A stretch of DNA of 16,126 nt from Clostridium sp. CAG:793 (GCA_000433915.1 HF993645.1:1-16126), one strand, 5' to 3'. Counted from the first letter of the stretch, positions 328 through 16,075 are shown. Notes: generated by a model not told the origin, from the sequence alone. Numbers and translations are program-made.

Positions 328-2244
328 ATGGAAAAATATAACCACGCATACGGTGCAAATCAAATACAAGTATTAGAAGGACTCGAAGCAGTTAGAAAAA
401 GACCAGGAATGTATATTGGAAGTGTATCAATTAGAGGATTACATCACTTGGTATATGAAATTGTAGATAACTGTGTAGATGAAGCTTTAGCAGGATATTG
501 TGACCGCATAGAAGTAAAAATTGAACCAGGTAACATAATATCTGTTGAAGATGATGGAAGAGGAATTCCAGTTGACATACATCCTAAAACTCACATCTCA
601 GCCGCAGAAACAGTTTATACAGTATTGCATGCCGGTGGAAAATTTGGAGGAGATAGTGGATATAAAGTATCTGGTGGACTTCATGGAGTTGGAGCATCCG
701 TAGTAAATGCATTATCAGAATGGACTGAAGTAACAATACAAAGAGATGGCGGAATCTTCCAAATGAAATTTGAAAGAGGAAAAACAGTAGAGAAACTAAC
801 AAAAATAGGAGAATCAAATAAAACTGGAACTCGTGTTAGATTTTTGGCTGATGGAACTATATTTGAAACATTAAACTATGATTATGACACTTTAGAAGAC
901 AGATTCAGAGAAATGGCATTTTTAACTAAAGGATTATATATTAGCATTGAAGACTTAAGAGGTGAAACACCTAAAAAAGCAGAATTTTGCTTTGAAGGAG
1001 GATTACGTTCTTTTGTTGAATATTTAAATAAAAATAAAGAAAAAATAAATCCAGAGCCTATATATATTGAAAAAACAAATGCAGAAATACCAGTAGAAAT
1101 TGCACTACAATATACAACTGCATATAATGAAAATATATATTCATTTGTCAATAATATAAATACAATAGAGGGTGGAACACACCTAGAAGGATTTAAAAGA
1201 GCATTAACAAAAGTATTTAATGATTATGCAAGATCACATGGAATATTAAAAGAAAAAGACAATAATTTACAAGGTGAGGATATCAGAGAAGGACTTACAG
1301 CTGTTATTTCCGTAAAGGTTAAAGAACCACAATTTGAAGGACAGACAAAAACAAAACTTGGAAATAGTAATGTCACAGGAATTGTACAATCAATAGTAGT
1401 GGATGCATTAAGCACATATTTAGAAGAAAATCCTACTGTTGCAAAATCAATATTAGAAAAATGCGTTAGTGCATCACACGCACGTGAAGCAGCAAGAAAA
1501 GCAAGAGAACTAGTTAGAAAGAAAAGCTCACTAGAAGTAACAACATTACCAGGAAAATTAGCAGATTGTAGTAGTAAAAATGCAGATGAGTGTGAAGTTT
1601 ATATCGTAGAGGGAGACTCTGCTGGAGGAAGTGCAAAGCAAGGAAGAAATAGAAAATATCAAGCAATTTTACCGTTATGGGGAAAAATGCTTAATGTTGA
1701 AAAATCAAGAGCTGATAAAATCTATAATAATGATAAATTAAAACCAGTTATACAAGCTATTGGAGCAGGAATAGGAGCTGACTTTGATGTAACTAAAATA
1801 CGTTATGGTAAAGTTGTAATTATGGCAGATGCCGATGTTGATGGAGCACATATTAGAACATTATTATTAACATTCTTCTTTAGATATATGAGACCTCTAA
1901 TAGAACAGGGACATGTATTTTTAGCACAACCCCCTTTATATAAAGTATCAAAAAAAGGAATAAAAGATGTATACTGCTATACAGATGAAGAATTAGATGA
2001 AGAACTTGAAAAAATAGGAAGAGATAATGTATCAATACAAAGATATAAAGGACTTGGAGAAATGAATCCAGAACAACTATGGGAAACAACTATGGATCCA
2101 GAAAATAGAATATTTGTAAAAGTTACAATGGATGATGCAATAAAAGCTGATCAAATATTTACTATTCTTATGGGAGATGAAATTGAACCTAGGAGACAAT
2201 TTATAGAAAAAAACGCAAAATTTGTAAAAAACTTAGATGTATAG
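328..2244 (+). CDS. gyrB: DNA gyrase subunit B
   Basis: 638-aa ORF with GHKL ATPase motifs ([37 protein letters not shown]), Toprim motifs ([30 protein letters not shown]) and a C-terminal [23 protein letters not shown] lies 10 nt upstream of the ATG. TAG stop. Confidence 0.97.
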
Positions 2245-2332
2245 AAATAATGTTTTTGACAAAAAAAGACATTATTCGACAAACACAAATTTAAATGAAA
2301 GACTTAGAACTGTAACGAAAAATATAAAAAAC

Positions 2333-2370
2333 AAACAGCATGTAATAGTAGTATTACATGCTGTTTTGTC
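2333..2370 (+). terminator. Rho-independent terminator after gyrB
   Basis: Perfect 15-bp stem AAACAGCATGTAATA (2333-2347) / TATTACATGCTGTTT (2352-2366), 4-nt loop GTAG, followed by a short T-run (TTTTG). Confidence 0.7.
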
Positions 2371-2392
2371 GATTTATGTCGAACGATTTTTG

Positions 2393-2421
2393 TTGACATC
2401 TTATGGAAACCGTAGTATCAT
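2393..2421 (+). promoter_or_regulatory. Candidate sigma-A promoter of the VirB4-like block (TTGACA-N17-TATCAT)
   Basis: TTGACA at 2393-2398, 17-nt spacer, TATCAT at 2416-2421. AAAGGAGAA SD (2431-2439) and ATG 2442 lie downstream. Confidence 0.55.
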
Positions 2422-2441
2422 AAAAACAAGAAAGGAGAAAA

Positions 2442-2975
2442 ATGAAACTTGAACAAATCCATTCTGTTCAAAATTGGCTTCCATTCGAAAAGATTTTAGA
2501 GAAAGGAATAGTAAAATTAAAAGACAACTCCTATATAAAAATATTAAATATAAGTCCAATAAATTATATACTAAAATCAGATTTAGAAAAAGAAGCGATT
2601 TTAAATTCATATAACAATATTTTTAAAAATTGTAATTTTAATATGCAAATATTAGTGCAAAGCAAAAAAATAGATTTATCTAATCATATAAAAAAAATAA
2701 AAAGTAATTCCTTCCAACAGAACTTAAAAGAAAAATATATAGATTATATAAATCAATATGTATCAACAAAAAAATCATCAAACAAAAAATTTTATTTAAT
2801 AATAAAAAGTCCAAAAGAAGAACAAGAAGAATCAGTAATTTTACAAAATTTGCAAGAAAATTACATAAAAGTCAGAGATTTATTTTCAAGATGTGGAAAC
2901 TTGGTATCTGAATATACAGAAGAAAAACAAATTTATGAGATTTTACACTCATTCTTTTATTCAACAAAAAATTAA
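2442..2975 (+). CDS. VirB4/PrgJ/TcpF-type T4SS ATPase, N-terminal domain fragment (ends at an in-frame TAA)
   Basis: 177 aa. The N-terminus (NWLPFEKILEKGIVKLKDNSYIKILNISPINYILKSDLEKEAILNSYNNIFKNCNFNMQILVQSKK) follows the pattern I recall for the N-terminal domain of Gram-positive VirB4-like conjugation ATPases. Good SD and ATG. Same reading frame as the next ORF. Confidence 0.7.
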   Translation: MKLEQIHSVQNWLPFEKILEKGIVKLKDNSYIKILNISPINYILKSDLEKEAILNSYNNIFKNCNFNMQILVQSKKIDLSNHIKKIKSNSFQQNLKEKYIDYINQYVSTKKSSNKKFYLIIKSPKEEQEESVILQNLQENYIKVRDLFSRCGNLVSEYTEEKQIYEILHSFFYSTKN

Positions 2976-3062
2976 AATAATAACAAAAGAGGTGGAAATA
3001 TAGATAATTATATAGGAGGAACATTTTCAAAAAGGGATTATTTAAGTCCGTCATATATTAAC

Positions 3063-4748
3063 TTGAATAATCCCAAATATATTGAAATTGACGGAACATA
3101 TTATTCAAGTCTAATAATAGTAAACTATGTAAGAGAACAAAATGATTTAATATTTCAAAATATTATTGATACAGATGAAAATATTTATTTATCAATATTT
3201 TACGAAAAACAGGACACTTACAAAGTAATAAAAGATTTAACATATAATATTGGAAATGTAGGAGTTGATCTGGAAAACATAGGAAAAAGTAGACAAGACT
3301 ATGAAATTGCAGCATTTACGTATAATGACGCAAAATACATAAGAAAACAACTACAAATTGATAATGAAGAATTATACTACATATACACGTATGTTACAGT
3401 ATTTTCAAACAATAAAAAAGATCTAGAATATAAAACAAATAAAATTGAAGGATTATTAAGAAGTAGAGGAATGCAAACTAAAAAAGCATATTTTAGACAA
3501 GAACAAGTGTATCAGGCAAGTCTTCCATTATTAATAAATAGTAAAGATATAAAAGAAGTATCAAAAAGAAACATTTTAACTAGCTCTATATCAGCGACTT
3601 ATCCTTTAATATCATCATCATTATTTGATGAAAATGGAATATTTATAGGAACTAATGTATATAACAATTCATTAATTTTCATAGATAAATATAACAGAAA
3701 TAAATATAAAAATTCAAACATGTGTATATTTGGAACAAGTGGTTCAGGAAAATCATTTTTTACAAAATTAATGATATTAAGAAACAGTTTAATGGGATTG
3801 GAACAATATATAATTGATCCAGATAGAGAATATAATAAACTAGCAGAAGAATTAAATGCATCTATTATAAAATTAGGAGCAAGCTCAGAAAGTTATATTA
3901 ATATTTTTGATATTAGAGAAGAAAGCTTAGAAGAAGATCAAAAAGGTTATCTAGCAACAAAAATAAATAAATTAATTAATTTTTTCAATTTAATTTTTAA
4001 TTCAATGACAGAAATAGAAAAATCAATATTAGAAGAAAAAATAATACAAATATATGAAGAAAAGGGGATAACTTTTAATGATAAAACACTATACAAAAAT
4101 AAAAAATTCAAAACCACAAAAGATATGCCAATACTTGAAGATCTATATAATAAACTCGAAGGAAATTTAAAAACAAGATTAAAACCATTTGTTTATGGGT
4201 CACTAAGCTATCTAAACAAACATACAAATGTAGAATTAAATAATTCAATAATAATTGCAGATATTTATGAACTAGGAGAAGAAAACATTAAATTTGGAAT
4301 GTATATTTTTATAGAATTATTTTGGGATAAAATAAAAAAAGATAGAAAAATAAAAAAATCAATTTATTTAGATGAAATATGGAAACTAATTGGGGTAACG
4401 TCAAACAAAGACGTAGCAAGCTTTATTTACAAAATTTTTAAAACAATAAGAAAATATGGAGGTAGTGCAGTTGCAATAACACAAGACATATCAGACTTAT
4501 TTAGCTTAGAAAATGGAACCTATGGAAAAAGTATATTAAACAACTCAGAAATAAAAACATTTTTTTATCTTGAAGAAGAAAATATAAAAATATTAGAAAA
4601 ATATTTAAATATTTCACAAAAAGAAAAATTAGAAATAAATTCATTAAAGAGAGGAGAATGTGTAATGTTTGTAGGAAAAGAACACATATTAGCAAAAATT
4701 GAATCTGCAGATTTTGAAAAAGAAATAATAGGAGGTGAAAATAATTAA
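3063..4748 (+). CDS. VirB4/PrgJ/TcpF-type T4SS ATPase, central and C-terminal P-loop part
   Basis: 561 aa from a TTG with no SD. Walker A IFGTSGSGKSFF, Walker B SIYLDEIW, AITQDISDL motif. The frame is actually open from 2976, directly after the TAA of the upstream ORF. The 29 intervening codons read NNNKRGGNIDNYIGGTFSKRDYLSPSYIN. The true start is uncertain. Confidence 0.8.
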   Translation: MNNPKYIEIDGTYYSSLIIVNYVREQNDLIFQNIIDTDENIYLSIFYEKQDTYKVIKDLTYNIGNVGVDLENIGKSRQDYEIAAFTYNDAKYIRKQLQIDNEELYYIYTYVTVFSNNKKDLEYKTNKIEGLLRSRGMQTKKAYFRQEQVYQASLPLLINSKDIKEVSKRNILTSSISATYPLISSSLFDENGIFIGTNVYNNSLIFIDKYNRNKYKNSNMCIFGTSGSGKSFFTKLMILRNSLMGLEQYIIDPDREYNKLAEELNASIIKLGASSESYINIFDIREESLEEDQKGYLATKINKLINFFNLIFNSMTEIEKSILEEKIIQIYEEKGITFNDKTLYKNKKFKTTKDMPILEDLYNKLEGNLKTRLKPFVYGSLSYLNKHTNVELNNSIIIADIYELGEENIKFGMYIFIELFWDKIKKDRKIKKSIYLDEIWKLIGVTSNKDVASFIYKIFKTIRKYGGSAVAITQDISDLFSLENGTYGKSILNNSEIKTFFYLEEENIKILEKYLNISQKEKLEINSLKRGECVMFVGKEHILAKIESADFEKEIIGGENN

Positions 4749-5859
4749 GAACGTTATAACTGCAATAGGAAACCAAAAATTAATAAAGGATTTAAAAGAA
4801 AATCAAATAAATGTATTATGCAATGATATTTCATATAGAGAAGGAATATTAGAATTCTTAGAAGTAAATAAAAATATTGATTATATTATAATAAACGAAA
4901 AAATAGAAGGAGAAATACCAATAGAAGAATTAATTGAAAAAATAAAAGAATCAAATAGAAAAATAAAAATAATTTTAATAAGTGATAGTAAAAGAAGATA
5001 TAATAAAATTCATTATAAAATGAATAAAATTGATGAAAGAAAAATAGTAGAAATTATAAATAATAATGTAATGAGTAAAAAGACTATACCAATAAATAAT
5101 TTTTTTTCAGAAGAAACTAAAGATGGAAAAATACTCACAATATTAGGCGCAAATGGAATAGGAAAAAGTATATTTTCAGTAACATTTGCAGCAAACATTA
5201 AAGATAAAAAGGTATTAATAATAGACTTTGATATTTTAAATAATAGTTTACAATATTTATTAGCGGTAAAAAATTATGATAAAGATATAAAAAATAAAAT
5301 AATGAAAAATAATTTAAATTCAAATATCAATATAAATGACTATGTAATAAAAACAAAATATAATGTTGACCTAATATCAGGAGTAAATTTAATTTTTAAT
5401 AATGCAAAACAATCAAGTATTACAAAAATAAAAAATACAATAAAACAAGCAAAAAAATTATATGATTTAATAATAGTAGATACTTCATCAGAATGCTTTA
5501 TGGATTATACAAAAGAAATGATAAAGATGTCAAATCAATCAATATTAATATCAGGGGCTAATTCATTAGAAATAAAGAAAGCAAAAAAATTATTACAAAT
5601 ATATACTGAAGAATGGAACATTGCAAAAGAACAACTAAATATTATATTTAATAAATGCACAAAATATTCAATTGACGATGAGATTTTAAAAGGAGTATTT
5701 AAAGGATATAATATTTTAGGAAAAATAAAGTTAGATGATTATTATGATTTAGTAATTAATAAACAATCAAATCAAGAAAAAGTAATAAAAGAAGAACTAT
5801 CATATATAAGAGAAAAAATATTAAATAAAAAGATTAAAGAACAAATGAAAAGGAGGTAA
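4735..5859 (+). CDS. Pseudo-receiver + ParA/MinD-family P-loop ATPase (TadZ/CpaE-like architecture)
   Basis: The N-terminal ~120 aa resemble a CheY-like fold but lack the acceptor Asp (DYIIINEKIEG). The C-terminal part has a deviant Walker A ILGANGIGKS and hydrophobic-Asp Walker B motifs (VLIIDFD, LIIVDTS). Overlaps the VirB4-like stop by 14 nt. The start codon is uncertain because GTG 4735 lies inside the SD. Confidence 0.65.
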   Translation: MKIIKNVITAIGNQKLIKDLKENQINVLCNDISYREGILEFLEVNKNIDYIIINEKIEGEIPIEELIEKIKESNRKIKIILISDSKRRYNKIHYKMNKIDERKIVEIINNNVMSKKTIPINNFFSEETKDGKILTILGANGIGKSIFSVTFAANIKDKKVLIIDFDILNNSLQYLLAVKNYDKDIKNKIMKNNLNSNININDYVIKTKYNVDLISGVNLIFNNAKQSSITKIKNTIKQAKKLYDLIIVDTSSECFMDYTKEMIKMSNQSILISGANSLEIKKAKKLLQIYTEEWNIAKEQLNIIFNKCTKYSIDDEILKGVFKGYNILGKIKLDDYYDLVINKQSNQEKVIKEELSYIREKILNKKIKEQMKRR

Positions 5860-5899
5860 TTAAATAGAAGCAATATTAACAAATCAATTAGACAATACC

Positions 5900-6601
5900 A
5901 TGCAAAATGAGATAACAAACACCATACAAATAGCAAAAGAACAAAACAATTTTTTAGAAACAACAATAGGAAAATTAATAAATACAGGAATAAATACTGG
6001 ATTAAGAGTATTATTACCAGATTTAATAGAAGACCAGATTATATCAATTAAAGATGAAATAATAAAAAACGGATTTAAAGCAGGAATACAGCAAACTGTC
6101 TCATCAGCAATAGAATTAGGAAAAAGTGTAGTAGGTATGGTGACTGGTAAATTTGATAATATAAATCAAGCACAAACTGTAATAAAATCAGGAGGTCTAA
6201 TAGATACAGTATCAAATTTACTTGACAAGGGAATAAATACAACAATAAAAAATAATATAATTTCTACAAATGTAGGCAAAGTAATAAAAAGAGGAAAAAA
6301 TACCATATTAAATACCATAAGCAATAATATAGAAAATAATTTTACAAGCCAAATAAATAGTATAGAAAAAATTAATAAATATTCAAACAATTGGAATAAT
6401 TATTATAAAAATAAAGACCTAGATGGAATGGAAAGAGAATATAAAAAAATCAAAGAAAAATTAAAAGAAACAATGCCATTAGAAAAAACAATAATAGATG
6501 CTAGAAAAATTGAAAATATACATAAACTAATAAAAAACAATGGAGGAAATTTTAATTTAAGTGCAGAAGAAATTGGACTGGCTCAAAAATTAATATACTA
6601 A
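5900..6601 (+). CDS. Hypothetical protein, predicted soluble and helical, N/K/I-rich
   Basis: 233-aa ORF with no TM segment or signal peptide. Co-oriented and tightly packed with the preceding ATPase genes. No motif I can assign. ATG 5900 lacks an SD, and the frame is open from 5864. Confidence 0.5.
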   Translation: MQNEITNTIQIAKEQNNFLETTIGKLINTGINTGLRVLLPDLIEDQIISIKDEIIKNGFKAGIQQTVSSAIELGKSVVGMVTGKFDNINQAQTVIKSGGLIDTVSNLLDKGINTTIKNNIISTNVGKVIKRGKNTILNTISNNIENNFTSQINSIEKINKYSNNWNNYYKNKDLDGMEREYKKIKEKLKETMPLEKTIIDARKIENIHKLIKNNGGNFNLSAEEIGLAQKLIY

Positions 6602-6661
6602 ATTTCAATAAAATTAATACTCTCAAATATGCTGTAAATTAATAAAAAAAGCAATTTTTCC

Positions 6662-6690
6662 TTGCAATTTTAAAAGGACTTTAGTATAAT
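6662..6690 (+). promoter_or_regulatory. Candidate sigma-A promoter of gyrA (TTGCAA-N17-TATAAT)
   Basis: TTGCAA at 6662-6667, 17-nt spacer, consensus TATAAT at 6685-6690. GAAAGAGGT SD and ATG 6727 lie downstream. Confidence 0.55.
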
Positions 6691-6726
6691 AAAGAAGTAA
6701 AAAATAGCTAGGAAAGAGGTAAACAA

Positions 6727-9222
6727 ATGGACAAGAAAGAAGAACCAGAGTTCAAAGAAGGAAAGATAATTAATAGAGACATTGAAGAAGAAATGAAAAC
6801 TGCCTATATTGATTATGCGATGAGCGTAATTGTTCAACGTGCTCTTCCAGATGTAAGAGATGGTTTGAAACCAGTACATAGAAGAATTTTATATACAATG
6901 TATGAAGATGGATTAACTACTGAAAAGCCATACAGAAAATCAGCTACAACAGTAGGAGATGTTTTAGGTAGATATCATCCACATGGAGATTCATCTGTTT
7001 ATGATGCAATGGTTAGACTAGCACAAGATTTCTCACTTAGATATCCTTTAATTGATGGACATGGAAATTTTGGATCAATTGATGGAGATGGAGCAGCTGC
7101 ATACCGTTATACAGAAGCAAGAATGTCAAAAATAGCAGAAACAATGCTAACAGACATAGAAAAAAATACTGTAGACTTTATGCCAAACTTTGATGGTATA
7201 AGACAGGAACCAACTGTTTTACCAGCTAAATTACCAGCTTTGTTAGTAAATGGATCATCAGGAATAGCAGTAGGAATGGCAACAAATGTTCCACCACATA
7301 ATTTAACAGAAATATTAAATGCTGTTATTAGAATGGTTGAGCTAAAAGAAAAATCAGAAGAAATAACTGACGAAGAATTATTGAAAATAGTAAAAGGTCC
7401 AGATTTTCCAACAGGAGCAACAATTTTAGGAAGAGAAGGAATAAAACAAGCATATTTAACAGGAAGAGGAAAAATATTATTAAGAGCTGAAGCTGAAATT
7501 GAAGAAATGTCAGGAAATAGACAAAGAATAGTAGTATCTTCACTTCCTTATCAAGTTAATAAAGCAAAATTAATAGTAGACATAAATCAATTAGTAAGAG
7601 ACAAGAGAATAGAAGGTATATCAGAAGTTAGAGACGAATCTGATAGAGAAGAAAAAGTAAGAGTTGTTATAGAATTAAAGAGAGATGTAAATGCTAAAGT
7701 AATATTAAACCAATTATACAAAAACACTCAATTACAAGATTCTTTTGGAATAATAATGCTTGCTTTAGTTGATGGTGTTCCAAGAATCCTTACATTAAGA
7801 CAATGCTTAGATTATTATATAGAACATAGAAAAAATGTAATAGTACGTAGAACTAAATTTGACTTAGATAAAGCACTTGCAAGAGCTCATATATTAGAGG
7901 GATTAAGAATTGCAATTGATAATATTGATGAAGTAATCAGAATAATTAGAAATTCTTATGATGATCCAAAAGAACAATTAATGAAGAGATTTGGATTAGA
8001 TGATATACAAGCCCAATCAATATTGGATATGAGATTAAAGACTTTATCAGGTTTACAAAGAGAAAAGATAGAAGAAGAATATCAAGCTCTTATGAAACTA
8101 ATAGCTCATTTAAGAGAAATATTGGCAAACGATAATTTAGTTGATGACATTGTAAAAGAAGAATCTCTAGAAATGAAAGAAAAATATGGAGATGAAAGAA
8201 AAACTAAGATTGTTGCTGCAGCAGATGAATTTGAAGATGAGGATTTAATTGCAGAAGAACAATCAATTATAGCATTAACTAGATTTGGATATATTAAAAG
8301 AATGCCATTAGACACATATAAAAGCCAGAAACGTGGAGGAAAAGGAATTACAGGAATTACAACAAGAGAAGATGATTTTGTAAAACAAATATTTACAGCA
8401 TCAACACATGATATAATTCTATTCTTTAGCAATAAAGGTAAGCTATATAAACTAAGAGGATTTGAAGTTCCAGAAGCAGGAAGAACTGCAAAGGGAACAG
8501 CAATAGTTAACTTGCTATCATTAGATGGTGGAGAAAAAATTACAGCAGTAATTCCAATTAAAGAATTTTCAGAAAATCAATTTTTATTAATGGGTACAAA
8601 AAATGGATTAATTAAAAAGACACCTTTAAAAGAATATGATTCTGGAAAGAAAACGGGGTTAATGTCAATTAACTTAAAAGAAGACGATGAATTAATTGAT
8701 GTAAGACTAACAGAAGGTGAAAATAACATTGTAATGGTAACAAGAAAAGGCCTATGTATTACATTTAATGAAAAAGATGTTCGCCCAATAGGAAGAACAT
8801 CACAAGGTGTTCTTGGAATAAGAATAGATAAAGACGATAGTGTTATCGGAATGGAAACAATTAATGCTAATAGCAAAGGAACATTACTTGCAATAACAGA
8901 AAACGGATTTGGAAAAAGAACTGAATTAGACGAATACCGTGTACAAGCAAGAGGTGGAAGAGGAGTAGTTACATACAAAATCACATCTAAGACCGGAGAA
9001 ATTGTAGGAATAAGAATTACTGGAGAAGACGACGATATATTAATGATTACAGATACAGGAACAGTAATAAGAATAAAAGCTTCGGAAATAAGTGTACTAG
9101 GAAGAAATACTCAAGGAATAACATTAATGAGAACGAGCGATGGAGGAAAAGTAGTTAGCATTGAAAAAGTAAACGATAATGACACAGAAGAAATAGAAAA
9201 AGAAGACGAAAAAAATAAATAA
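6727..9222 (+). CDS. gyrA: DNA gyrase subunit A
   Basis: 831 aa. Contains [35 protein letters not shown] (Ser and Asp at the positions equivalent to E. coli S83/D87, i.e. wild-type-like), catalytic-Tyr context [11 protein letters not shown], GyrA box QKRGGKG (argues gyrase rather than ParC) and an acidic C-terminal tail. Confidence 0.97.
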
Positions 9223-9284: not shown

Positions 9285-10289
9285 TTAAACTTTTAATTTT
9301 TTCTTAATACGAATATCATCTCCGAAAAAATAACAAGCATTATAATTACCAATGATTCTAGAAACTATTCTTTCTTCATAAGTATTATATAAATCTTGCA
9401 AAGATAAATTCGTAGAAATAATAGTCTTAGTTATTTTATTATTTTGATTCAATAAACGAGTATTGATAATATTAAACAATTCAGTAATTTTTAAATTGTT
9501 TTTAGATTCAGTTCCTAAATCATCTATAATTAATAAATCAACAGAATTAATTGAACTTATAATATTATTACTACTTTTTCCAAATTTATAATCAATTATA
9601 TTATCTAGCATCATAGGAGCAGTTTGATATAATACAGTCTTTCCACGCTTTATCATCTCATTAGCAATGCATGAAGAAAGAAAAGTTTTACCTAAACCAG
9701 GACTGCCACAAAATAATAAATTGCTTTCATCAGGATCATCAAAATGATCGATAAAATGCTGACAAATCTTCTTTATAGATATAATATTATCTCTAGGAGA
9801 TATATTTTTACCATATTTATATTCATCAACTAAATCAGAATAAAAACTTAGTCTGAAATTATCAAAATTTTGATTTTGCAAATCATAAATATTTGAATGA
9901 TTATATTCAATATTATATAACTTTTGCTTTATACAATTACAAAGAACATTATTATTATTTTGCTTAACAAATCCAGTATCTTTACAAATTGGACAATCGA
10001 ATTTAGGCAAGAAATCATCTTGAGAAAGATTATGCTTTTTTAAAATATCCAATTTTTGAGACTTTAAACATGCAATTTGCTTATTTAAATTGTCAATTAA
10101 AGATTTATCACGAGTAGTTAAAATTAATTTAATAGCTTTAATTGATAAAGAATTTATATCATTTTCAACTTTTTCTAATTCCGGAATAGAAGAAATAATC
10201 TTCTCTTTTTTTAAATTTGCATCGGCAATTTTTGAATTTCTCTTTCTTTCATAATTGGCTAACAAAGACTTTAAATTATCATTATTCAT
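9285..10289 (-). CDS. DnaC/DnaI-like replicative helicase loader (AAA+, IstB-like ATP-binding)
   Basis: 334 aa. Cys cluster CPICKDTGF...CNC (zinc-binding N-domain as in DnaI), Walker A CGSPGLGKTF, Walker B LLIIDDLGTE, sensor-like TIISTN. SD GAGGTGAT sits before the ATG. Confidence 0.85.
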   Translation of the reverse strand: MNNDNLKSLLANYERKRNSKIADANLKKEKIISSIPELEKVENDINSLSIKAIKLILTTRDKSLIDNLNKQIACLKSQKLDILKKHNLSQDDFLPKFDCPICKDTGFVKQNNNNVLCNCIKQKLYNIEYNHSNIYDLQNQNFDNFRLSFYSDLVDEYKYGKNISPRDNIISIKKICQHFIDHFDDPDESNLLFCGSPGLGKTFLSSCIANEMIKRGKTVLYQTAPMMLDNIIDYKFGKSSNNIISSINSVDLLIIDDLGTESKNNLKITELFNIINTRLLNQNNKITKTIISTNLSLQDLYNTYEERIVSRIIGNYNACYFFGDDIRIKKKLKV

Positions 10290-10317: not shown

Positions 10318-11289
10318 TTAAATATTACTGTAAAAACTATTTAAATTATTATAATTTCTTTGAGGATAATTTGCAGAAGCATTGCCAGAGTTAGTAGAAC
10401 TACTAGAATTCTTTTGAACTGGAATATTTTTCTGCTTTTCAATATATTCTAATACTTGAGAAGAAGTCTTTAAACCTCTTTCGTGCCAATCAGAAATTAA
10501 CTTATCAAGGTATTCAAAACTAGGATTAAACTTAGAAGTAGTCTTTTTCAAAGCAATATCAATAATATCTAAACCATATCCGTAAGTCAAATTCCATTTT
10601 TCAATATATGCTTCTTCATAAACAGATAAATTACGAGCAATACGCATCTTCTTTCTAATAGAATTACCAATAGACTTTAATTTTTCTTCTTTCTGATAAT
10701 ATAAATCTAAGTCACTAAAAGTTTTAATTTTATTTTTATTCCAAGCCTCAGCGACAGTTGAAATATAAGATCTATGTAAAGCTGATTTATTAAAACAATA
10801 TCTAAATAGTGCAATCATAACCTCTTCGTCAAAACCATATTTCTTGAACCATAAATCAATATCGCCATACCAAGATGGAGACATAACGCCTTGAAAGAAT
10901 TCATTATTAATTGTATCAATAGCTTTAGCTCTGTACTTGTTTTCAGCTACTTTCTTAACGTCTTGAGCAGACATAGAAATTCTAGGCTTATAAACCTTAT
11001 TCAATTCTATTTCTTGTAAATTAGCAACAATAAAGCCTTGATTTTTACGAATCAAAAGACCTGCTTCTTCCCAATACTTAACTGCATCTTGAATTATTTT
11101 AAGAGGCAATTCCAATTTTTTAGATAAATCATTTATCTTCACATCTTTATTATATTTAGACAAAAAATAAAGATATAAATAAACTTTTACAAAGTCACCA
11201 CTAGCCTGTGAAAGATACTCTGTAAAAAAAACATCTGGAATACTAGTCTGTGAAAAAATTAAAGATACATCATTTTGCTCTAGTTTCAT
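10318..11289 (-). CDS. DnaD-domain replication initiation protein (DnaB/DnaD-like, two DnaD-type repeats)
   Basis: 323 aa with an N-terminal winged-helix-like region and two DnaD-like C-terminal repeats (WFKKYGFDEEVMIALFRYC...YISTVAEAWNKNKIKT and YGYGLDIIDIALKKT...YLDKLISDWHERGLKT). TAGGAGGTAATT SD and ATG. Immediately upstream of the loader gene, like the dnaB-dnaI arrangement. Confidence 0.8.
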   Translation of the reverse strand: MKLEQNDVSLIFSQTSIPDVFFTEYLSQASGDFVKVYLYLYFLSKYNKDVKINDLSKKLELPLKIIQDAVKYWEEAGLLIRKNQGFIVANLQEIELNKVYKPRISMSAQDVKKVAENKYRAKAIDTINNEFFQGVMSPSWYGDIDLWFKKYGFDEEVMIALFRYCFNKSALHRSYISTVAEAWNKNKIKTFSDLDLYYQKEEKLKSIGNSIRKKMRIARNLSVYEEAYIEKWNLTYGYGLDIIDIALKKTTSKFNPSFEYLDKLISDWHERGLKTSSQVLEYIEKQKNIPVQKNSSSSTNSGNASANYPQRNYNNLNSFYSNI

Positions 11290-11381: not shown

Positions 11382-11660
11382 TTAAAAATAAAGATATATT
11401 TTAGGCTTAATTAAAAACTTTAAAATATAAAAAAGCGAATATAGAATATTTTCATGATTAAAACCAACAATACTAAAAAGAAAAATTGGAAAATAAAAAA
11501 CAATAATAAAAATAATTCTAATATTTATACTAGAGAAAAGTAAATAATTAATACCAAAAATAATTAAAAAATATATAACATTAAAAATTGCAGTAGGATA
11601 ATCTATAATACCAAGCAATTTATTCTTAAAAGAATAATTAGAAGGAAAAATAAAATTCAA
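11382..11660 (-). CDS. PrgI/VirB3-like small T4SS membrane protein
   Basis: 92 aa with two hydrophobic helices. The C-terminal FNHENILYSLFYILKFLIKPKIYLY resembles the PrgI-family tail. TTG start 6 nt after a GAGGTG SD that overlaps the upstream stop codon. Confidence 0.55.
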   Translation of the reverse strand: MNFIFPSNYSFKNKLLGIIDYPTAIFNVIYFLIIFGINYLLFSSINIRIIFIIVFYFPIFLFSIVGFNHENILYSLFYILKFLIKPKIYLYF

Positions 11661-11672
11661 AAAATCACCTCA

Positions 11673-12536
11673 CTATTTCTTAAAAAACGAAAGAACATTA
11701 CCAAATTGATTAGAAACATCTATTCCAACACCACCAAACAACTCTCGAACATAACTATTAATTTTAGTCAAAGCATAAATTCCTCCAATAAACAAAATTT
11801 TATTCGAAAAATCAATTGAGAAAATAACTATTAAAACAATAGGAATAAAACATTGAATTATCAATAAAGAAAACATACACTTAAACCATGATCTAAAAAT
11901 CCAAGAAGTAGAAGAAACAATAAGACTTAGAAGAGCAAAAGGTGTAAACAATAAAAATACTTGTAAAATAATGTATCTTAAAGAATATGAAAAAAGTAAA
12001 TTCATTAAGCCAACACTTACAAAACTCTTGATTATTCCAGAGATAGAAAACAGATCAAAGGAAGATTCACCAACAGAAACAGTACGGTTAAGCTGAGTAA
12101 TCAATTCAGAAAAAGAAATATCAATTCCTAAAATATTCTTACCAATTTCCTGAATAGAAGAAGAGAACAATAAGTTAATATTAAGAACTTGCTCGCATAA
12201 AAAATATGAAAAATTAACTAAAAAAGTAAAAATAATAAGCTTAAAAATAAACTGGCTAGGTTTTTCAATATTAGTTTCAACATAATTAGCATAAAAAAAT
12301 TTAACACAATAAAACATAGAAATAGCAACAAGCATTGCATCAGCCAAATAAATAAGTCCATATTTTCCATTAGCACCAAGCAATTTTTCAAAAGAAGAAT
12401 TTTTAATAATATCTGGCCCAATAAAAATAACACTATCAAGACTAGAATACATACTATTATCAATTGAGGAAATAATATTACCTAATATAGTATTTATAGT
12501 ATCAATAATTATATTAACAATTTCACCTTTTTCCAC
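11673..12536 (-). CDS. VirB6/TrbL-like polytopic T4SS membrane protein
   Basis: 287 aa with about 5-6 predicted TM helices and a soluble N-terminal stretch. GTG start 5 nt after a GGAGA SD. Flanked by the pilin-like and VirB3-like genes. Confidence 0.55.
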   Translation of the reverse strand: MEKGEIVNIIIDTINTILGNIISSIDNSMYSSLDSVIFIGPDIIKNSSFEKLLGANGKYGLIYLADAMLVAISMFYCVKFFYANYVETNIEKPSQFIFKLIIFTFLVNFSYFLCEQVLNINLLFSSSIQEIGKNILGIDISFSELITQLNRTVSVGESSFDLFSISGIIKSFVSVGLMNLLFSYSLRYIILQVFLLFTPFALLSLIVSSTSWIFRSWFKCMFSLLIIQCFIPIVLIVIFSIDFSNKILFIGGIYALTKINSYVRELFGGVGIDVSNQFGNVLSFFKK

Positions 12537-12597
12537 AAAATCTCCATAAATATAAATTTAGATTCTAAAGAAGAACCTATAAGACTTTTATTAAAAT

Positions 12598-12622
12598 CTG
12601 TACACCTGTAATAGGTGTACAG
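12598..12622 (-). terminator. Intra-operon hairpin (attenuator or stabiliser) immediately after the pilin-like gene
   Basis: Perfect 10-bp stem CTGTACACCT / AGGTGTACAG with a 5-nt loop. It starts 2 nt after the TAA stop (12627-12625) and is followed on the minus strand by ATTTTAAT. Confidence 0.55.
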
Positions 12623-12624
12623 CA

Positions 12625-12954
12625 TTATATTAAAGACTCAATTGCTGATAGAATTAAATCAAGAGCAAGGAATAAAGCATAGGCAACAAAAGAGCCTCTA
12701 ATAATTTTCTTTGACATACGAATACGCTCTTCATCTCCAAAACTAAATTTTTTCATAAAAAGACCTGCTCCAACAGCAACAGCAGCTGCTGGAGTTGCCA
12801 GCTTTAAAAGCCAACTTTTAATATCCTTAAAAGCAGAAGAAAGTTTAGTAACCAATTTAGGCGTAGCTGCAAAAGAAAATGGCATAAAAATAGAAAATAA
12901 AAAACAAACAATAAAAACAAATACACAAATTTTTATTAGTCGTTTTTTTCTCAA
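12625..12954 (-). CDS. VirB2/TrbC-like pilin-type small membrane protein
   Basis: 109 aa. Basic N-terminus plus hydrophobic signal peptide ending SFA|AT, then two hydrophobic helices (ATPAAAVAVGAGLFM and FVAYALFLALDLILSAI) separated by a charged loop. This is VirB2/TrbC topology. TTG start 6 nt after GGAGG. Confidence 0.55.
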   Translation of the reverse strand: MRKKRLIKICVFVFIVCFLFSIFMPFSFAATPKLVTKLSSAFKDIKSWLLKLATPAAAVAVGAGLFMKKFSFGDEERIRMSKKIIRGSFVAYALFLALDLILSAIESLI

Positions 12955-12968
12955 AATAAACCTCCAAT

Positions 12969-14429
12969 CTATTTAATAAAATAAGGAATCATCTGCAATT
13001 CTGTAGGAGGTAAAATCTTATTACCATCAGATAAAAAAGATAAACAATGAAAAGTAGATAACTCCTGAGTAAAAAAATGATAATCATATTTAAATTCTAA
13101 TTGAGAATAAGAATTTAAACTCTCAGAATAACTTGAATCACTACTAATAAACTTTTTAGAAAGAGGATTATAAGAACTATGCTTAGAATTTTCAGAAAAA
13201 GATCTTGAAAAATGTTCACGTTCTTCTTTGCCAATTTGCTTCTGAATATCTTCAATAGTAAAAATATCATCACTTCTAAACCATAACTTATTAACCAAGC
13301 TCTGAATAATTACTTTAGAAGCATATTGATTATTAAGACTATTAAGTATAGAAGTATAGCTTTGAGTGGCAACAATATTAATACATTTTGCTTCTCTACT
13401 TTGAGAAAAAAATGATGCATCAGATGAAGTAACATATTCTTGATATTCATCAGAAATAAACACAGAAGGTCTAATTAAATTACAGGAATGATTAGACAAC
13501 TGCTCCAAAACATCAGATTGAAAATCTAACTTCAAATATGCTGCAATAATCTTAGATAAATTCTTATACTTTGCAATATTCATATTCAAAATAACGATTT
13601 TTCCAGAATGTAAAGCATCATGAAAACCACAAAAATTTTCATCTTCTTTAGAAGGACAAAAAGTATTTTTAACATCTAAATTAGACACAAAACAATTTGT
13701 GATTCTAGTAATTTCTGACTGAAGTATATGCAAATTTCTATCATCAAGAGAATAAAAATCATTCTCAAGAAAACTAATAGATCTGTATAAATTAAATATA
13801 TCAACATCCGAAAGTTTACGAGAAATAAAATAATCTCGAACAATAGAAAGTTTGGATAAATAATAAGAATGATCAGTAATCAAATTATGCAATTCATCGA
13901 AAGAGACATATCCATCATTATAAATTCTACAAAAACTAATACATGCTTCAATAACTTGTTCAGACTTATCAATCCAAAAAGACTCAGAATTATTAGGCGA
14001 GAACAATAGTAAAATCTCTTTAAGCCTATTAGCCAAGACAGATGGTAAGAGCGAAGGCTTGTCTAAAGGATTGTAGCGATATTTACCATTAATCTCAATA
14101 ACAATTACATCATTTAATCTGTTACAATCATGTGCAAACTCAAGTACTTTAGAATAATAATTTCCTTTAACATCAAGTATTAGAAGAAATAATTTGCTAT
14201 CAAAATCATTATCAAAATAATCAATCAATTGTCTTGTAAAAGGGTACAAAGCAGACGCAGTTTTACCAGATCCAATAGTACCAGTAACAAGAAAATTTTG
14301 ATACAATCCACTTTCTGGAACAAACACAGGATTATCATTCATATCATTTCCAATATATAAGCCGAAAAGTAGGAGCTTTATAAATAAGTAAATTATTCTT
14401 ATTATAGTTAAGAAAATAAGAAAAAACAA
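12969..14429 (-). CDS. T4SS coupling-protein-like ATPase (VirD4/TraG/TraD family)
   Basis: Walker A VTGTIGSGKT, ILDVKGNY, Walker B-like VFISDEYQEY, then SREAKCINIVATQSYTSI (TraG-D_C-like). The 14429 start is a TTG inside the upstream ORF. An alternative ATG at 14342 (MNDNPVF...) lies 1 nt after the upstream TGA and gives about 457 aa. Confidence 0.7.
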   Translation of the reverse strand: MFFLIFLTIIRIIYLFIKLLLFGLYIGNDMNDNPVFVPESGLYQNFLVTGTIGSGKTASALYPFTRQLIDYFDNDFDSKLFLLILDVKGNYYSKVLEFAHDCNRLNDVIVIEINGKYRYNPLDKPSLLPSVLANRLKEILLLFSPNNSESFWIDKSEQVIEACISFCRIYNDGYVSFDELHNLITDHSYYLSKLSIVRDYFISRKLSDVDIFNLYRSISFLENDFYSLDDRNLHILQSEITRITNCFVSNLDVKNTFCPSKEDENFCGFHDALHSGKIVILNMNIAKYKNLSKIIAAYLKLDFQSDVLEQLSNHSCNLIRPSVFISDEYQEYVTSSDASFFSQSREAKCINIVATQSYTSILNSLNNQYASKVIIQSLVNKLWFRSDDIFTIEDIQKQIGKEEREHFSRSFSENSKHSSYNPLSKKFISSDSSYSESLNSYSQLEFKYDYHFFTQELSTFHCLSFLSDGNKILPPTELQMIPYFIK

Positions 14430-14595
14430 ATTTAAGAATTATAAAATTGGCAATAAATGAAAATAATATAAATAAACCTCTTGTGAATAACCATAAAGTA
14501 GGATTAGTAATAAGAAAATTAAAAATTCTAAAATTACTATAATAATTAATAGCCTTAGAAAAAAGTATAGGCTTAAAAAGCAAAATTATTAACAC
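14344..14595 (-). CDS. Small hydrophobic protein, possible detached or frameshifted N-terminal TM domain of the coupling protein
   Basis: 83 aa from GTG 14595, which has no SD. The frame is open up to 14649, with an AGGAGGA SD at 14640-14634. At least one TM helix (LFILFSFIANFIILKFVFSYFL). It overlaps the coupling-protein ORF in another frame. Confidence 0.4.
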   Translation of the reverse strand: MLIILLFKPILFSKAINYYSNFRIFNFLITNPTLWLFTRGLFILFSFIANFIILKFVFSYFLNYNKNNLLIYKAPTFRLIYWK

Positions 14596-14744
14596 CTGGG
14601 TTAAGCACAGTAAAAAAGCAAAAAGAATATTAATCCTCCTTTCTAAATTTTAGTTTTAACTTGGAACCTAAAAGATTATGAAAAATTGATATTTGTAAAA
14701 AACTATAAAAAGAATAAATACAAATAAGAAAATTAATAATAAAA

Positions 14745-14933: not shown

Positions 14934-15119
14934 ATGGAATTCAACAAAGACACAAAAATCGGAGAATTACTAGAGAAAGCTCCAGAAAAAGCAGACATTT
15001 TATTAGAAGCAGGAATGCATTGCCTAGGATGCCCAGCATCACAAGCAGAAACGCTTGAAGAAGCATGCATGGTACATGGAATAGATGTTGAAGAAGTATT
15101 AAAAGAATTAAATAAATAA
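14934..15119 (+). CDS. DUF1858 / hybrid-cluster-protein-associated redox disulfide domain protein
   Basis: 61 aa. IGELLEKAPEKADILLEAGMHCLGCPASQAETLEEACMVHGIDVEEVLKELN matches the GMHCxGCP...ETLEEA...HGID signature of this family. GGAAAGGAAAAG SD region lies upstream. Confidence 0.85.
   Translation: MEFNKDTKIGELLEKAPEKADILLEAGMHCLGCPASQAETLEEACMVHGIDVEEVLKELNK

Positions 15120-15999: not shown

Positions 16000-16075
<76 letters not shown>

Follow-up and report, generated by a model that had tools for sequence, protein, structure and literature searches.

Chromosomal type IV secretion systems and their mobile relatives

Among monoderm bacteria, the type IV secretion systems (T4SSs) closest in design to the genes described here are those of the Patescibacteria, or CPR (Quinonero-Coronel et al. 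2025, PMC12102498; Wang et al. 2023, as cited in PMC12102498 and PMC12857230), which a December 2025 review describes as unique among monoderms, chromosomal, required by the bacterium and potentially able to form pili (PMC12857230). Their commonest T4SS component is a separate VirB4 N-domain protein, represented in pGO1-type systems by TrsD (PMC12102498). Here, we analyse a 16,126-nt stretch of DNA from Clostridium sp. CAG:793 (GCA_000433915.1 HF993645.1:1-16126; hereafter the window, with positions counted from its first letter), in which the region under study, 2245-6726, fills exactly the interval between the end of gyrB at 2244 and the start of gyrA at 6727. We think it rather likely that the four-gene cassette in this interval is one half of an old, vertically inherited, exapted chromosomal T4SS of MPF_FATA-like type at oriC, in a lineage of gut Clostridia of ~25% G+C. 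Exaptation for a host function, and not transfer of a mobile element, is argued for by the missing relaxase, integrase and element boundary together with the co-divergence of the genes with those for gyrase.

The likeness to the Patescibacteria systems covers several features. Both are chromosomal, vertically inherited and apparently derived from the monoderm MPF_FATA class; both have a TrsD-like gene beside virB4 as well as VirB3/PrgI-, VirB6- and VirB2-like genes (here candidates, all three by sub-threshold matches, the last to PF18895); in neither is a relaxase near, and homologues of VirB1 and VirB8 are mostly absent in Patescibacteria. The position close to the origin, dnaA, dnaN, rnpA and rpmH is likewise often seen there. 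Different here, as judged from the genes, are the host, a Clostridia-type Firmicute whose GyrB shares no more than 65% identity with that of any other sampled lineage and whose gene order (jag-yidC-rnpA-rpmH|dnaA-dnaN-recF-gyrB) and DnaD/DnaI-type loaders are Firmicute-like; the division of the genes into two half-clusters around gyrA, with an adjacent coupling protein and no pilin arrays; and a TadZ-like ATPase and a protein family that we call ORF4, neither of which is reported in PMC12102498.

With the plasmid and integrative and conjugative element (ICE) systems of Firmicutes (MPF_FATA: pGO1/pSK41 TrsD-TrsE, pCF10 Prg, CTn2 CD1110/CD1115), the locus shares a CD1110-related VirB4, a TraD/CD1115-like coupling protein and candidate PrgI-/VirB6-like components, and it is the best-match families and the closest plasmid matches that point to the MPF_FATA class. 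In contrast to those systems, no mobile element, relaxase, integrase or hydrolase accompanies the genes here.

Helicobacter ComB is a chromosomal, relaxase-less T4SS that has been exapted for DNA uptake. The archaeal Ced/Ted systems (PMC9905601) are of the same kind and resemble the present locus in being chromosomal, relaxase-less derivatives of conjugation with a VirB4-type ATPase, a VirB6-like channel and a VirB2-like pilin. Both serve DNA uptake, whereas no competence genes adjoin the locus in the window. A prior description of a gyrB-gyrA T4SS locus was not found in the literature searched.

A conserved VirB4 gene pair between gyrB and gyrA

The window covers the origin region of a bacterial chromosome (~26% G+C). 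Contigs encoding exactly the same proteins, up to 667 kb long, read jag-yidC-yidD-rnpA-rpmH | dnaA-dnaN-recF-gyrB-cassette-gyrA, and the gene order of the lineage is dnaA-dnaN-recF-gyrB | virB4N-virB4-tadZ-like-ORF4 | gyrA | dnaI-like dnaD-like | virB3-like virB6-like virB2-like virD4-like, where the last six genes (dnaI-like to virD4-like) lie on the minus strand. The left border of the cassette is gyrB (328..2244, plus strand, 638 aa), called from its open reading frame (ORF) and translation, with Pfam domains taken from the identical gene of locus L001 (labels such as L001, L007 and L009 denote same-species or related loci compared with the window); gyrA (6727..9222, plus strand, 831 aa, from ORF and translation) stands between the two T4SS half-clusters. 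Four co-oriented ORFs had been predicted between them, and all four are present, at 2442-2975, 3063-4748 as listed, 4735-5859 and 5900-6601. Misassembly is excluded by the same junctions in well over 100 independent contigs from various samples and species.

The first two ORFs together account for a VirB4. ORF1 (2442..2975, plus strand, 177 aa) corresponds to positions 1-167 of the CD1110 VirB4 model of NCBIfam (E 2.8e-9), matches VirB4_plasma and, in precomputed annotation, the TraC-like family PF26593, and is thus a VirB4 N-terminal-domain protein (VirB4N) encoded by a separate gene of the TrsD type. ORF2 (3000..4748, plus strand; 582 aa if read from an ATA at 3000, listed from a TTG at 3063) is the VirB4 ATPase, with P-loop_TraG, AAA_10 and DUF87 domains in Pfam. 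It corresponds to positions 200-730 of CD1110 VirB4 (E 7.5e-82), so that both ORFs jointly are collinear with one full-length VirB4, and it also matches VirB4_plasma (3.6e-76) and TraC (2e-43). Its score stays below the equivalog cut-offs (276 against 325 bits), and the Walker A (GTSGSGKS) and Walker B (DEIW) motifs read from its translation are intact. VirB4 homologues number 6075 at E <= 1e-20, and the best 120 of these are 69-81% identical to ORF2 and 427-634 aa long, a length that identifies them as the C part alone.

The original prediction had described these ORFs as VirB4-like N and C parts. The identities stand, but what they represent is a conserved two-gene arrangement and not a broken gene. 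In the window ORF1 and ORF2 share a frame with one TAA between them, which might suggest a VirB4 inactivated by a nonsense mutation or expressed through stop read-through; both are rejected, since the pair is conserved with differing frames and spacing in relatives. VirB4N is a separate gene in all relatives examined: L007 has the pair in different frames, with a ribosome-binding site (RBS) and an ATG belonging to the C gene itself, L099 shows a 4-nt overlap between them, and L032 has them ~1.1 kb apart. As the frames differ between lineages, the in-frame TAA of the window is incidental. The same order, with a separate N-terminal homologue immediately upstream of virB4, is found in TrsD/TrsE of pGO1, and a two-gene VirB4 also occurs in the T4SS of a Pontibacillus megaplasmid; in Vescimonas pMM35_02, by contrast, VirB3 and both VirB4 parts are fused into one 943-aa protein. 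A tblastn search of 72,556 plasmids with VirB4N gave 30 matches, none of them in Staphylococcus (no TrsD match), and for VirB4 the closest plasmid protein is 33% identical, with the closest plasmid matches in Clostridia and Bacilli.

Two other origins were considered for the VirB4 matches and rejected. Matches to PHROG 2666 (annotated "terminase") and to a ParA PHROG are superfamily cross-matches, and no other phage genes are present. In PADLOC, VirB4 matched mad8 (E 8.5e-24) and DndH with nothing coherent elsewhere; these are cross-matches within the HerA/VirB4 superfamily and far weaker than those to the VirB4 families.

A probable membrane half beyond gyrA

The cassette is not a self-contained unit: matching candidates for T4SS membrane components and a coupling protein lie across gyrA, at 11382-14628 on the minus strand, and the two half-clusters jointly comprise probable equivalents of VirB2, VirB3, VirB4 (two genes), VirB6 and VirD4. 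The first is a two-transmembrane VirB3/PrgI-like protein of 92 aa (11382..11660), whose orthologues match PrgI in 3/8 cases (best E 0.0042) and TcpE in 1/8, all below curated cut-offs. It is followed by a polytopic VirB6/TrbL-like membrane protein of 287 aa (11673..12536), with TrbL/VirB6 matches in 3/8 orthologues (best E 9.3e-5, below curated cut-offs) and, for its profile, a single match in the PDB, to TrwI, the VirB6 of R388 (E 0.81). A VirB2-like pilin candidate of 109 aa (12625..12954) has orthologues matching PF18895 T4SS_pilin in seven of eight cases (best E 1.6e-5) and TrbC/VirB2 in two, again sub-threshold; its topology, taken from the alignment, consists of a signal peptide and two hydrophobic helices flanking a charged loop, and it has no plasmid homologue. 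The matches of these small proteins agree among orthologues and from one protein to the next, and the sizes and transmembrane topology of the VirB3- and VirB6-like proteins fit.

The set is completed by a VirD4/TraD-like coupling protein (T4CP; 12969..14628), which occupies two frames in the window's species and matches TrwB_AAD_bind, TraG-D_C, SXT_TraD and CD1115, with DotL at E 0.006; TraD is matched by all seven orthologues (best E 7.9e-10). The presence of a TraD/VirD4-type protein allows the locus to be read as a working conjugation system that moves chromosomal or mobilisable DNA with a relaxase and oriT encoded elsewhere, akin to Hfr-type or Mycoplasma chromosomal transfer. The closest named VirB4 families are indeed conjugal as well as monoderm (CD1110 and the Mbov_0397 ICE family), and in real conjugative systems T4CP and relaxase genes are often far from virB4 (PMC12102498). 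We nevertheless regard active conjugation as fairly improbable: no relaxase is found within ~20 kb at any locus examined, the T4CP of the window's species is frameshifted, and strict vertical co-divergence at a fixed position is unlike a self-transmissible element. More specifically, no relaxase (MOB) and no integrase occurs among the window proteins or among the genes called at related loci of 20 kb. As the original prediction had stated, recombinase domains are missing from the window proteins in Pfam and NCBIfam searches and flanking direct repeats are missing too, a repeat search having given low-complexity chance repeats only.

A TadZ-like ATPase and a clade-specific helical protein

ORF3 (4735..5859, plus strand, 374 aa) had been proposed to be a pseudo-receiver fused to a ParA ATPase, and its predicted structure agrees with this, pointing to a TadZ-like fold. 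In Pfam there are weak CbiA/ParA matches only, and the AlphaFold2 (AF2) model (pLDDT 77) finds PDB 3FKQ, which is TadZ, as its top Foldseek match over both domains (412 columns, E 2.4e-11), followed by ParA/MinD structures. The N-terminal domain is flavodoxin-like and, in the alignment, the position of the phospho-acceptor Asp is not conserved, so that the protein has the two-domain architecture of TadZ, an atypical receiver fused to a MinD/ParA-type ATPase. Like TadZ/CpaE in this respect, it differs in its T4SS setting without Tad genes (TadA, TadB/C, Flp pilin and prepilin peptidase were all missing from the window and related loci) and in its Walker A motif, GANGIGKS, a classical one without the signature lysine, of which GxxGxGKS is invariant among aligned homologues. 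In loci of the L135 type ORF3 is short (~207 aa) and has no receiver domain. An association of such ATPases with secretion is familiar: VirC1 of Agrobacterium is a ParA-like ATPase linked to a T4SS, and ParA-like ATPases position secretion machines.

ORF4 (5864..6601, plus strand; 233 aa from an ATG at 5900, 245 aa from an ATA at 5864) is a clade-specific protein modelled as all-helical (AF2, pLDDT 78). Its earlier description as a 233-aa protein of no recognisable kind was apt, with no family and no fold match: searches of Pfam, NCBIfam, PHROG, PDB sequences and PDB folds (AF2 and Foldseek) gave nothing significant, tblastn gave no plasmid homologue, and the sole PADLOC match, PDC-M62B, is marginal (E 4.2e-4). 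A family nevertheless exists. None of its 1414 homologues has a Pfam domain, except for a single listed protein (PF01969). When 1.84 billion representatives were searched with the profile, 484 representative clusters came up, in which full-length members are mostly ~240 aa, and no known family was linked to them.

An old, vertically inherited locus

The age of the cassette was judged from one genome per GTDB species, scanned with GyrB, all loci then being searched with the window's proteins, and from a metagenome scan with the ORF4 profile that gave 80 loci. All close relatives (GyrB 81-87% identical in the GTDB scan, 81-90% overall) with enough sequence carry the cassette between gyrB and gyrA, L007-L011, L015 and L032 among them. 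In the metagenome loci ORF4 directly precedes gyrA in 71 of 80, and the other nine contigs end too early, so that it is directly upstream of gyrA in 71/71 informative loci. None of the 73 gyrB loci with GyrB at or below 65% identity has any T4SS match. The premise that gyrB and gyrA are typically adjacent elsewhere, and that the cassette is an insertion, is correct: in the 43 of these 73 non-clade loci where both genes are visible gyrA follows gyrB, with no VirB4 match and with a gap of at most ~380 nt in 36 and up to ~1.4 kb in the rest.

The original prediction went on to suggest a later, recent acquisition, chiefly from composition. The compositional differences are real, with a G+C content of 0.218 in the cassette against 0.31-0.32 in the gyrase genes, and an N/K/I fraction of 0.33-0.44 in its proteins against 0.21-0.22 in the gyrase proteins. 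The absence of the cassette from other Firmicutes could be read in the same sense. However, the G+C content at third codon positions (GC3) is 0.10-0.15 in the cassette, compared with 0.124 in gyrB, 0.126 in gyrA, 0.104 in dnaN and 0.085 in recF, and the lower overall value arises at codon positions 1 and 2, that is, from amino-acid content, as it does in recF (0.201), rnpA (0.225) and the DnaC-like gene. With GC3 like that of the host and housekeeping genes equally AT-rich, composition is no mark of foreignness here. The same site across the whole clade, host-like synonymous composition, synonymous distances equal to those of the flanking genes and the lack of repeats and of a recombinase make a recently acquired foreign cassette extremely improbable; clade-wide presence at one site with host-like composition is the very pattern that the original prediction had named as refuting recent acquisition.

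Divergence tells the same story. Pairwise distances correlate with those of the gyrase genes (r = 0.59 for VirB4N, 0.64 for VirB4 and 0.86 for ORF4). Between L009 and L135, synonymous divergence (dS) is 0.42-0.67 for the cassette genes against 0.48 for gyrB and 0.40 for gyrA, and 0.42-0.82 for all T4SS genes save the pilin (1.13). The ratio of nonsynonymous to synonymous divergence (dN/dS) for this pair is 0.36 for VirB4N (0.29-0.36 overall), 0.14 for VirB4, 0.33 for ORF3, 0.16 for ORF4 (~0.15 overall), 0.07 for the pilin-like protein, 0.17 for the VirB6-like protein, 0.16 for the T4CP and 0.45 for the VirB3-like protein, and it is 0.09-0.14 for the helicase loader and DnaD-like genes; all nine genes fall within 0.07-0.45 at dS ~0.4-1.1. 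The cassette entered before the radiation of the clade, has been inherited vertically and is kept by selection.

Points against an exapted system, and what they might mean

Several observations weigh against an exapted, working T4SS. The VirB2-, VirB3- and VirB6-like assignments are sub-threshold. Scans of the window ORFs found no domain of a VirB1-like hydrolase (VirB1/TrsG/CD419-like) or of a VirB8-like protein (PrgL/TcpC); the genes for these components, and for a relaxase, could lie in other parts of the genome. In the window the T4CP is in two pieces, a transmembrane piece at 14344-14628 and a nucleotide-binding piece at 12969-14429, separated by a frameshift (overlap 14344-14429, minus strand) mapped against the intact 549-aa protein of L007; six more assemblies of the species have the nucleotide-binding piece, with its ORF calls, at 99-100% identity, and the T4CP of L009 is also split, in a different way. 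VirB4 itself seems frameshifted in the metagenome loci L111, L148 and L155, which could equally be assembly errors. Finally, in one sub-lineage, here termed layout B (20 loci, many of which come from a small number of species; L096, L099-L113, L119, L127, L142, L146, L148 and L157), only VirB4N, VirB4 and ORF4 lie between gyrB and gyrA, and there is no TadZ-like gene and, within 6-8 kb after gyrA, neither a second T4SS half nor a DnaC/DnaD pair. In L099 a minus-strand gene for a 1418-aa protein follows gyrA instead.

Taken together with the weak AUA/AUU start codons described below and the missing relaxase and integrase, the lack of VirB1- and VirB8-like genes, the frameshifts and layout B are the grounds for seeing in the locus a decaying, non-functional remnant of an ancient ICE that landed around gyrA by chance. 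We hold such decay to be unlikely: ORFs of ~580 codons have stayed open at 25% G+C between species with protein identities of no more than 63-81%, nine genes have the dN/dS values given above, the Walker motifs are intact, and a good RBS stands before each non-canonical start.

Layout B bears on a further alternative, that the core of VirB4N, VirB4 and ORF4 has left secretion and become a DNA motor of the FtsK/HerA type that serves replication or segregation at oriC. Such a role would account for the position between gyrB and gyrA being kept even without the adjacent membrane half; the three core genes are all that layout B retains at the site, still under purifying selection (dN/dS 0.14-0.29), the neighbours are all replication genes, and VirB4 is a member of the HerA/FtsK ATPase superfamily, which the DUF87/HerA and DndH/mad8 cross-matches reflect. 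Against a motor of this kind, the best full-length matches are specifically to conjugal VirB4 families, the membrane components are retained and under selection in layout A (the gene order of the window), and the second half of layout B may sit elsewhere in the genome, so that we rate it as very unlikely. The core trio may still have a role of its own. The TadZ-like gene, for its part, is present in 17/17 layout-A loci with a readable VirB4-to-ORF4 interval and in 0/15 such loci of layout B, a perfect co-occurrence that ties it to the membrane half.

For the exapted T4SS that we favour, the part assignments suggest how a machine might be assembled, the roles, location and substrate that we infer being modelled on related systems. 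The VirB4 ATPase and the separate VirB4N would dock on a VirB3/VirB6 membrane platform, where VirB4 would power assembly of a channel, and possibly of a pilus, from the VirB2-like pilin, with the coupling protein feeding substrate into the channel. The TadZ-like ATPase might place or scaffold the machine at a defined site in the cell, in the manner of TadZ with Tad pili and of VirC1 with the Agrobacterium T4SS, and ORF4 could be a lineage-specific cytoplasmic accessory (an adaptor, a chaperone or a substrate). Candidate functions include contact-dependent transfer and the import or export of DNA or protein.

A bolder extension, to which we assign a low probability, is that a widespread gut lineage depends on an origin-proximal, pilus-capable T4SS as Patescibacteria do, for contact-dependent uptake or exchange such as Ced-like DNA import or an epibiont-like interaction. 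Dosage and timing would then be tied to replication by the position between gyrB and gyrA, output would be throttled by initiation at AUA/AUU, and the Patescibacteria T4SS might have in this system its closest cellular relative.

Predicted transcription signals and probable unusual start codons

The strong hairpin predicted downstream of gyrB is present at 2333..2366, with a perfect 15-bp stem (dG -23.5 kcal/mol, z = -6.0 against shuffles). A terminator scan scored it on the minus strand, and on the plus strand TTTTGTCGATTT comes after it. Its counterpart in relatives is also the end of a candidate structured RNA on the minus strand, and the hairpin is a probable bidirectional terminator. Downstream lies the cassette promoter region (2367..2421, plus strand; cgaacgatttttgTTGACA), found by promoter scan and recurring in relatives, in which the predicted TTGACA-N17-TATCAT motif is present at 2393-2421 (-35 TTGACA at 2393-2398, -10 TATCAT at 2416-2421). 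Positions 2366-2398 match the equivalent region of L009 at 85%, and a cgatttttgTTGACA block is common to L009, L011 and L014. Just upstream of the -35 are two direct repeats of TGTCGA 10 bp apart (2367-2372 and 2377-2382), partly kept in the same three loci, which could be a binding site for a regulator. The promoter motif predicted for gyrA, TTGCAA-N17-TATAAT, is likewise present, at 6662..6690 on the plus strand, as a consensus match only. Promoter-like matches are no commoner in the window than in shuffles (51 against 54), so both sites count by position only, the first also by its conservation in relatives. In line with the prediction, the terminator scan scored no such site from the end of ORF4 to gyrA, an arrangement that might allow read-through into gyrA.

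In most related lineages, the spacer between gyrB and the cassette holds a conserved ORF-free element of ~450-480 nt on the minus strand (L009:8250-8790, minus; L099:5200-5700; L013:4065-4590; L015:3490-4010; and others), which the window does not have. It has a conserved promoter-like site of its own, TTGAAT-N17-CATAAT, and terminates at the same hairpin as gyrB. Across 11 sequences RNAalifold gave 144 pairs, with compensatory changes at 72 of these, and the structure conservation index was 0.52-1.18 on the minus strand (at least 0.84 in 4/6 windows) against ~0.2 in most windows on the plus strand. With no match in Rfam 15 and no tRNA or tmRNA in it, the element is a candidate new structured RNA of ~450 nt. 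Elsewhere in these spacers are a T-rich ORF-free stretch of ~300 nt (L009:8820-9110) and, in L099, 2.3 kb of ORF-free, extremely AT-rich DNA with internal repeats of ~90-300 nt (L099:5650-7480); several relatives' contigs break in or near such AT-rich ORF-free spacers.

At the aligned N-terminus a number of cassette genes offer no ATG, GTG or TTG, and a strong RBS there is followed 5-8 nt on by ATT or ATA. Counted as distinct lineages in which no canonical start is available, this applies to VirB4N in 9/19, VirB4 in 5/21, ORF3 in 4/9 and ORF4 in 1/54, and to none for gyrB, gyrA, the loader, and the DnaD-, VirB3- and VirB6-like genes. For the window, VirB4 is likely to start at the ATA at 3000, which stands behind the RBS AGAGGTGG (2988-2995) at the position of the ATG of L007. 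Similarly, possible starts are the ATA at 4741 or the ATT at 4744 for ORF3, inside GGAGGTGA, which includes the annotated GTG at 4735, and the ATA at 5864 for ORF4, behind the RBS AAAGGAGGT; the transmembrane piece of the T4CP probably starts at the ATT at 14628. Other examples of probable ATT/ATA starts are L009:9131, L116:6887 and L128:1564. An alternative genetic code was rejected, as gyrB, gyrA and all other genes read cleanly under table 11. From the pattern of AUA/AUU codons we infer translation that is weak, coupled and possibly sensitive to initiation factor IF3. Taken with one putatively regulated promoter and overlapping or abutting genes, expression of the cassette appears to be low and coupled.

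Neighbouring genes and other features

Between gyrA and the membrane half, on the minus strand, lie a DnaC/DnaI-like helicase loader (9285..10289; NF005304 over its full length at 325 bits, IstB_IS21, Bac_DnaA) and a DnaD/DnaB_2-domain protein (10318..11289; DnaB_2), which are probably housekeeping replication genes. Upstream of gyrB the window begins with an A-rich stretch of 327 nt (1-327, GC 0.19). At its other end, a 61-aa ORF with a CxxC motif (14934-15119, plus strand) stands between the T4CP gene and a SDR/FabG-like gene, and a tRNA gene (16003-16075, minus strand; Rfam, 72.6 bits) lies at the right end; both are seemingly unrelated to the T4SS, and an Rfam search of the window and its relatives gave tRNA only.

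The dnaA gene of this species, ~4 kb upstream of the window, is divided between two frames (residues 1-94 and 98-445; L001:3051-3059). This holds in 5/5 same-species assemblies checked, and dnaA is intact in L007 and L009 (440-445 aa). A fixed frameshift in an essential gene suggests recoding, reinitiation or a two-piece DnaA.

Implications for conjugation-derived machines

The locus brings the same design as the Patescibacteria T4SS into an abundant, uncultured lineage of gut Firmicutes, and it also carries two warnings for annotation, in that two VirB4 genes are not a pseudogene and AT-rich genes are not foreign in a genome of 25% G+C. Its position in the dnaA-gyrA block and its enrichment in AUA/AUU starts are regulatory features that lend themselves to testing. 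A functional system would mean that conjugation machinery has been exapted for host functions more broadly than supposed. It would also link two new parts to a T4SS, namely the ORF4 family and a positioning ATPase of the TadZ-like kind, and the lineage would offer a tractable comparison for the origin of the Patescibacteria system. Should a dependence like that of the Patescibacteria prove true, this would be the first such system in Firmicutes.

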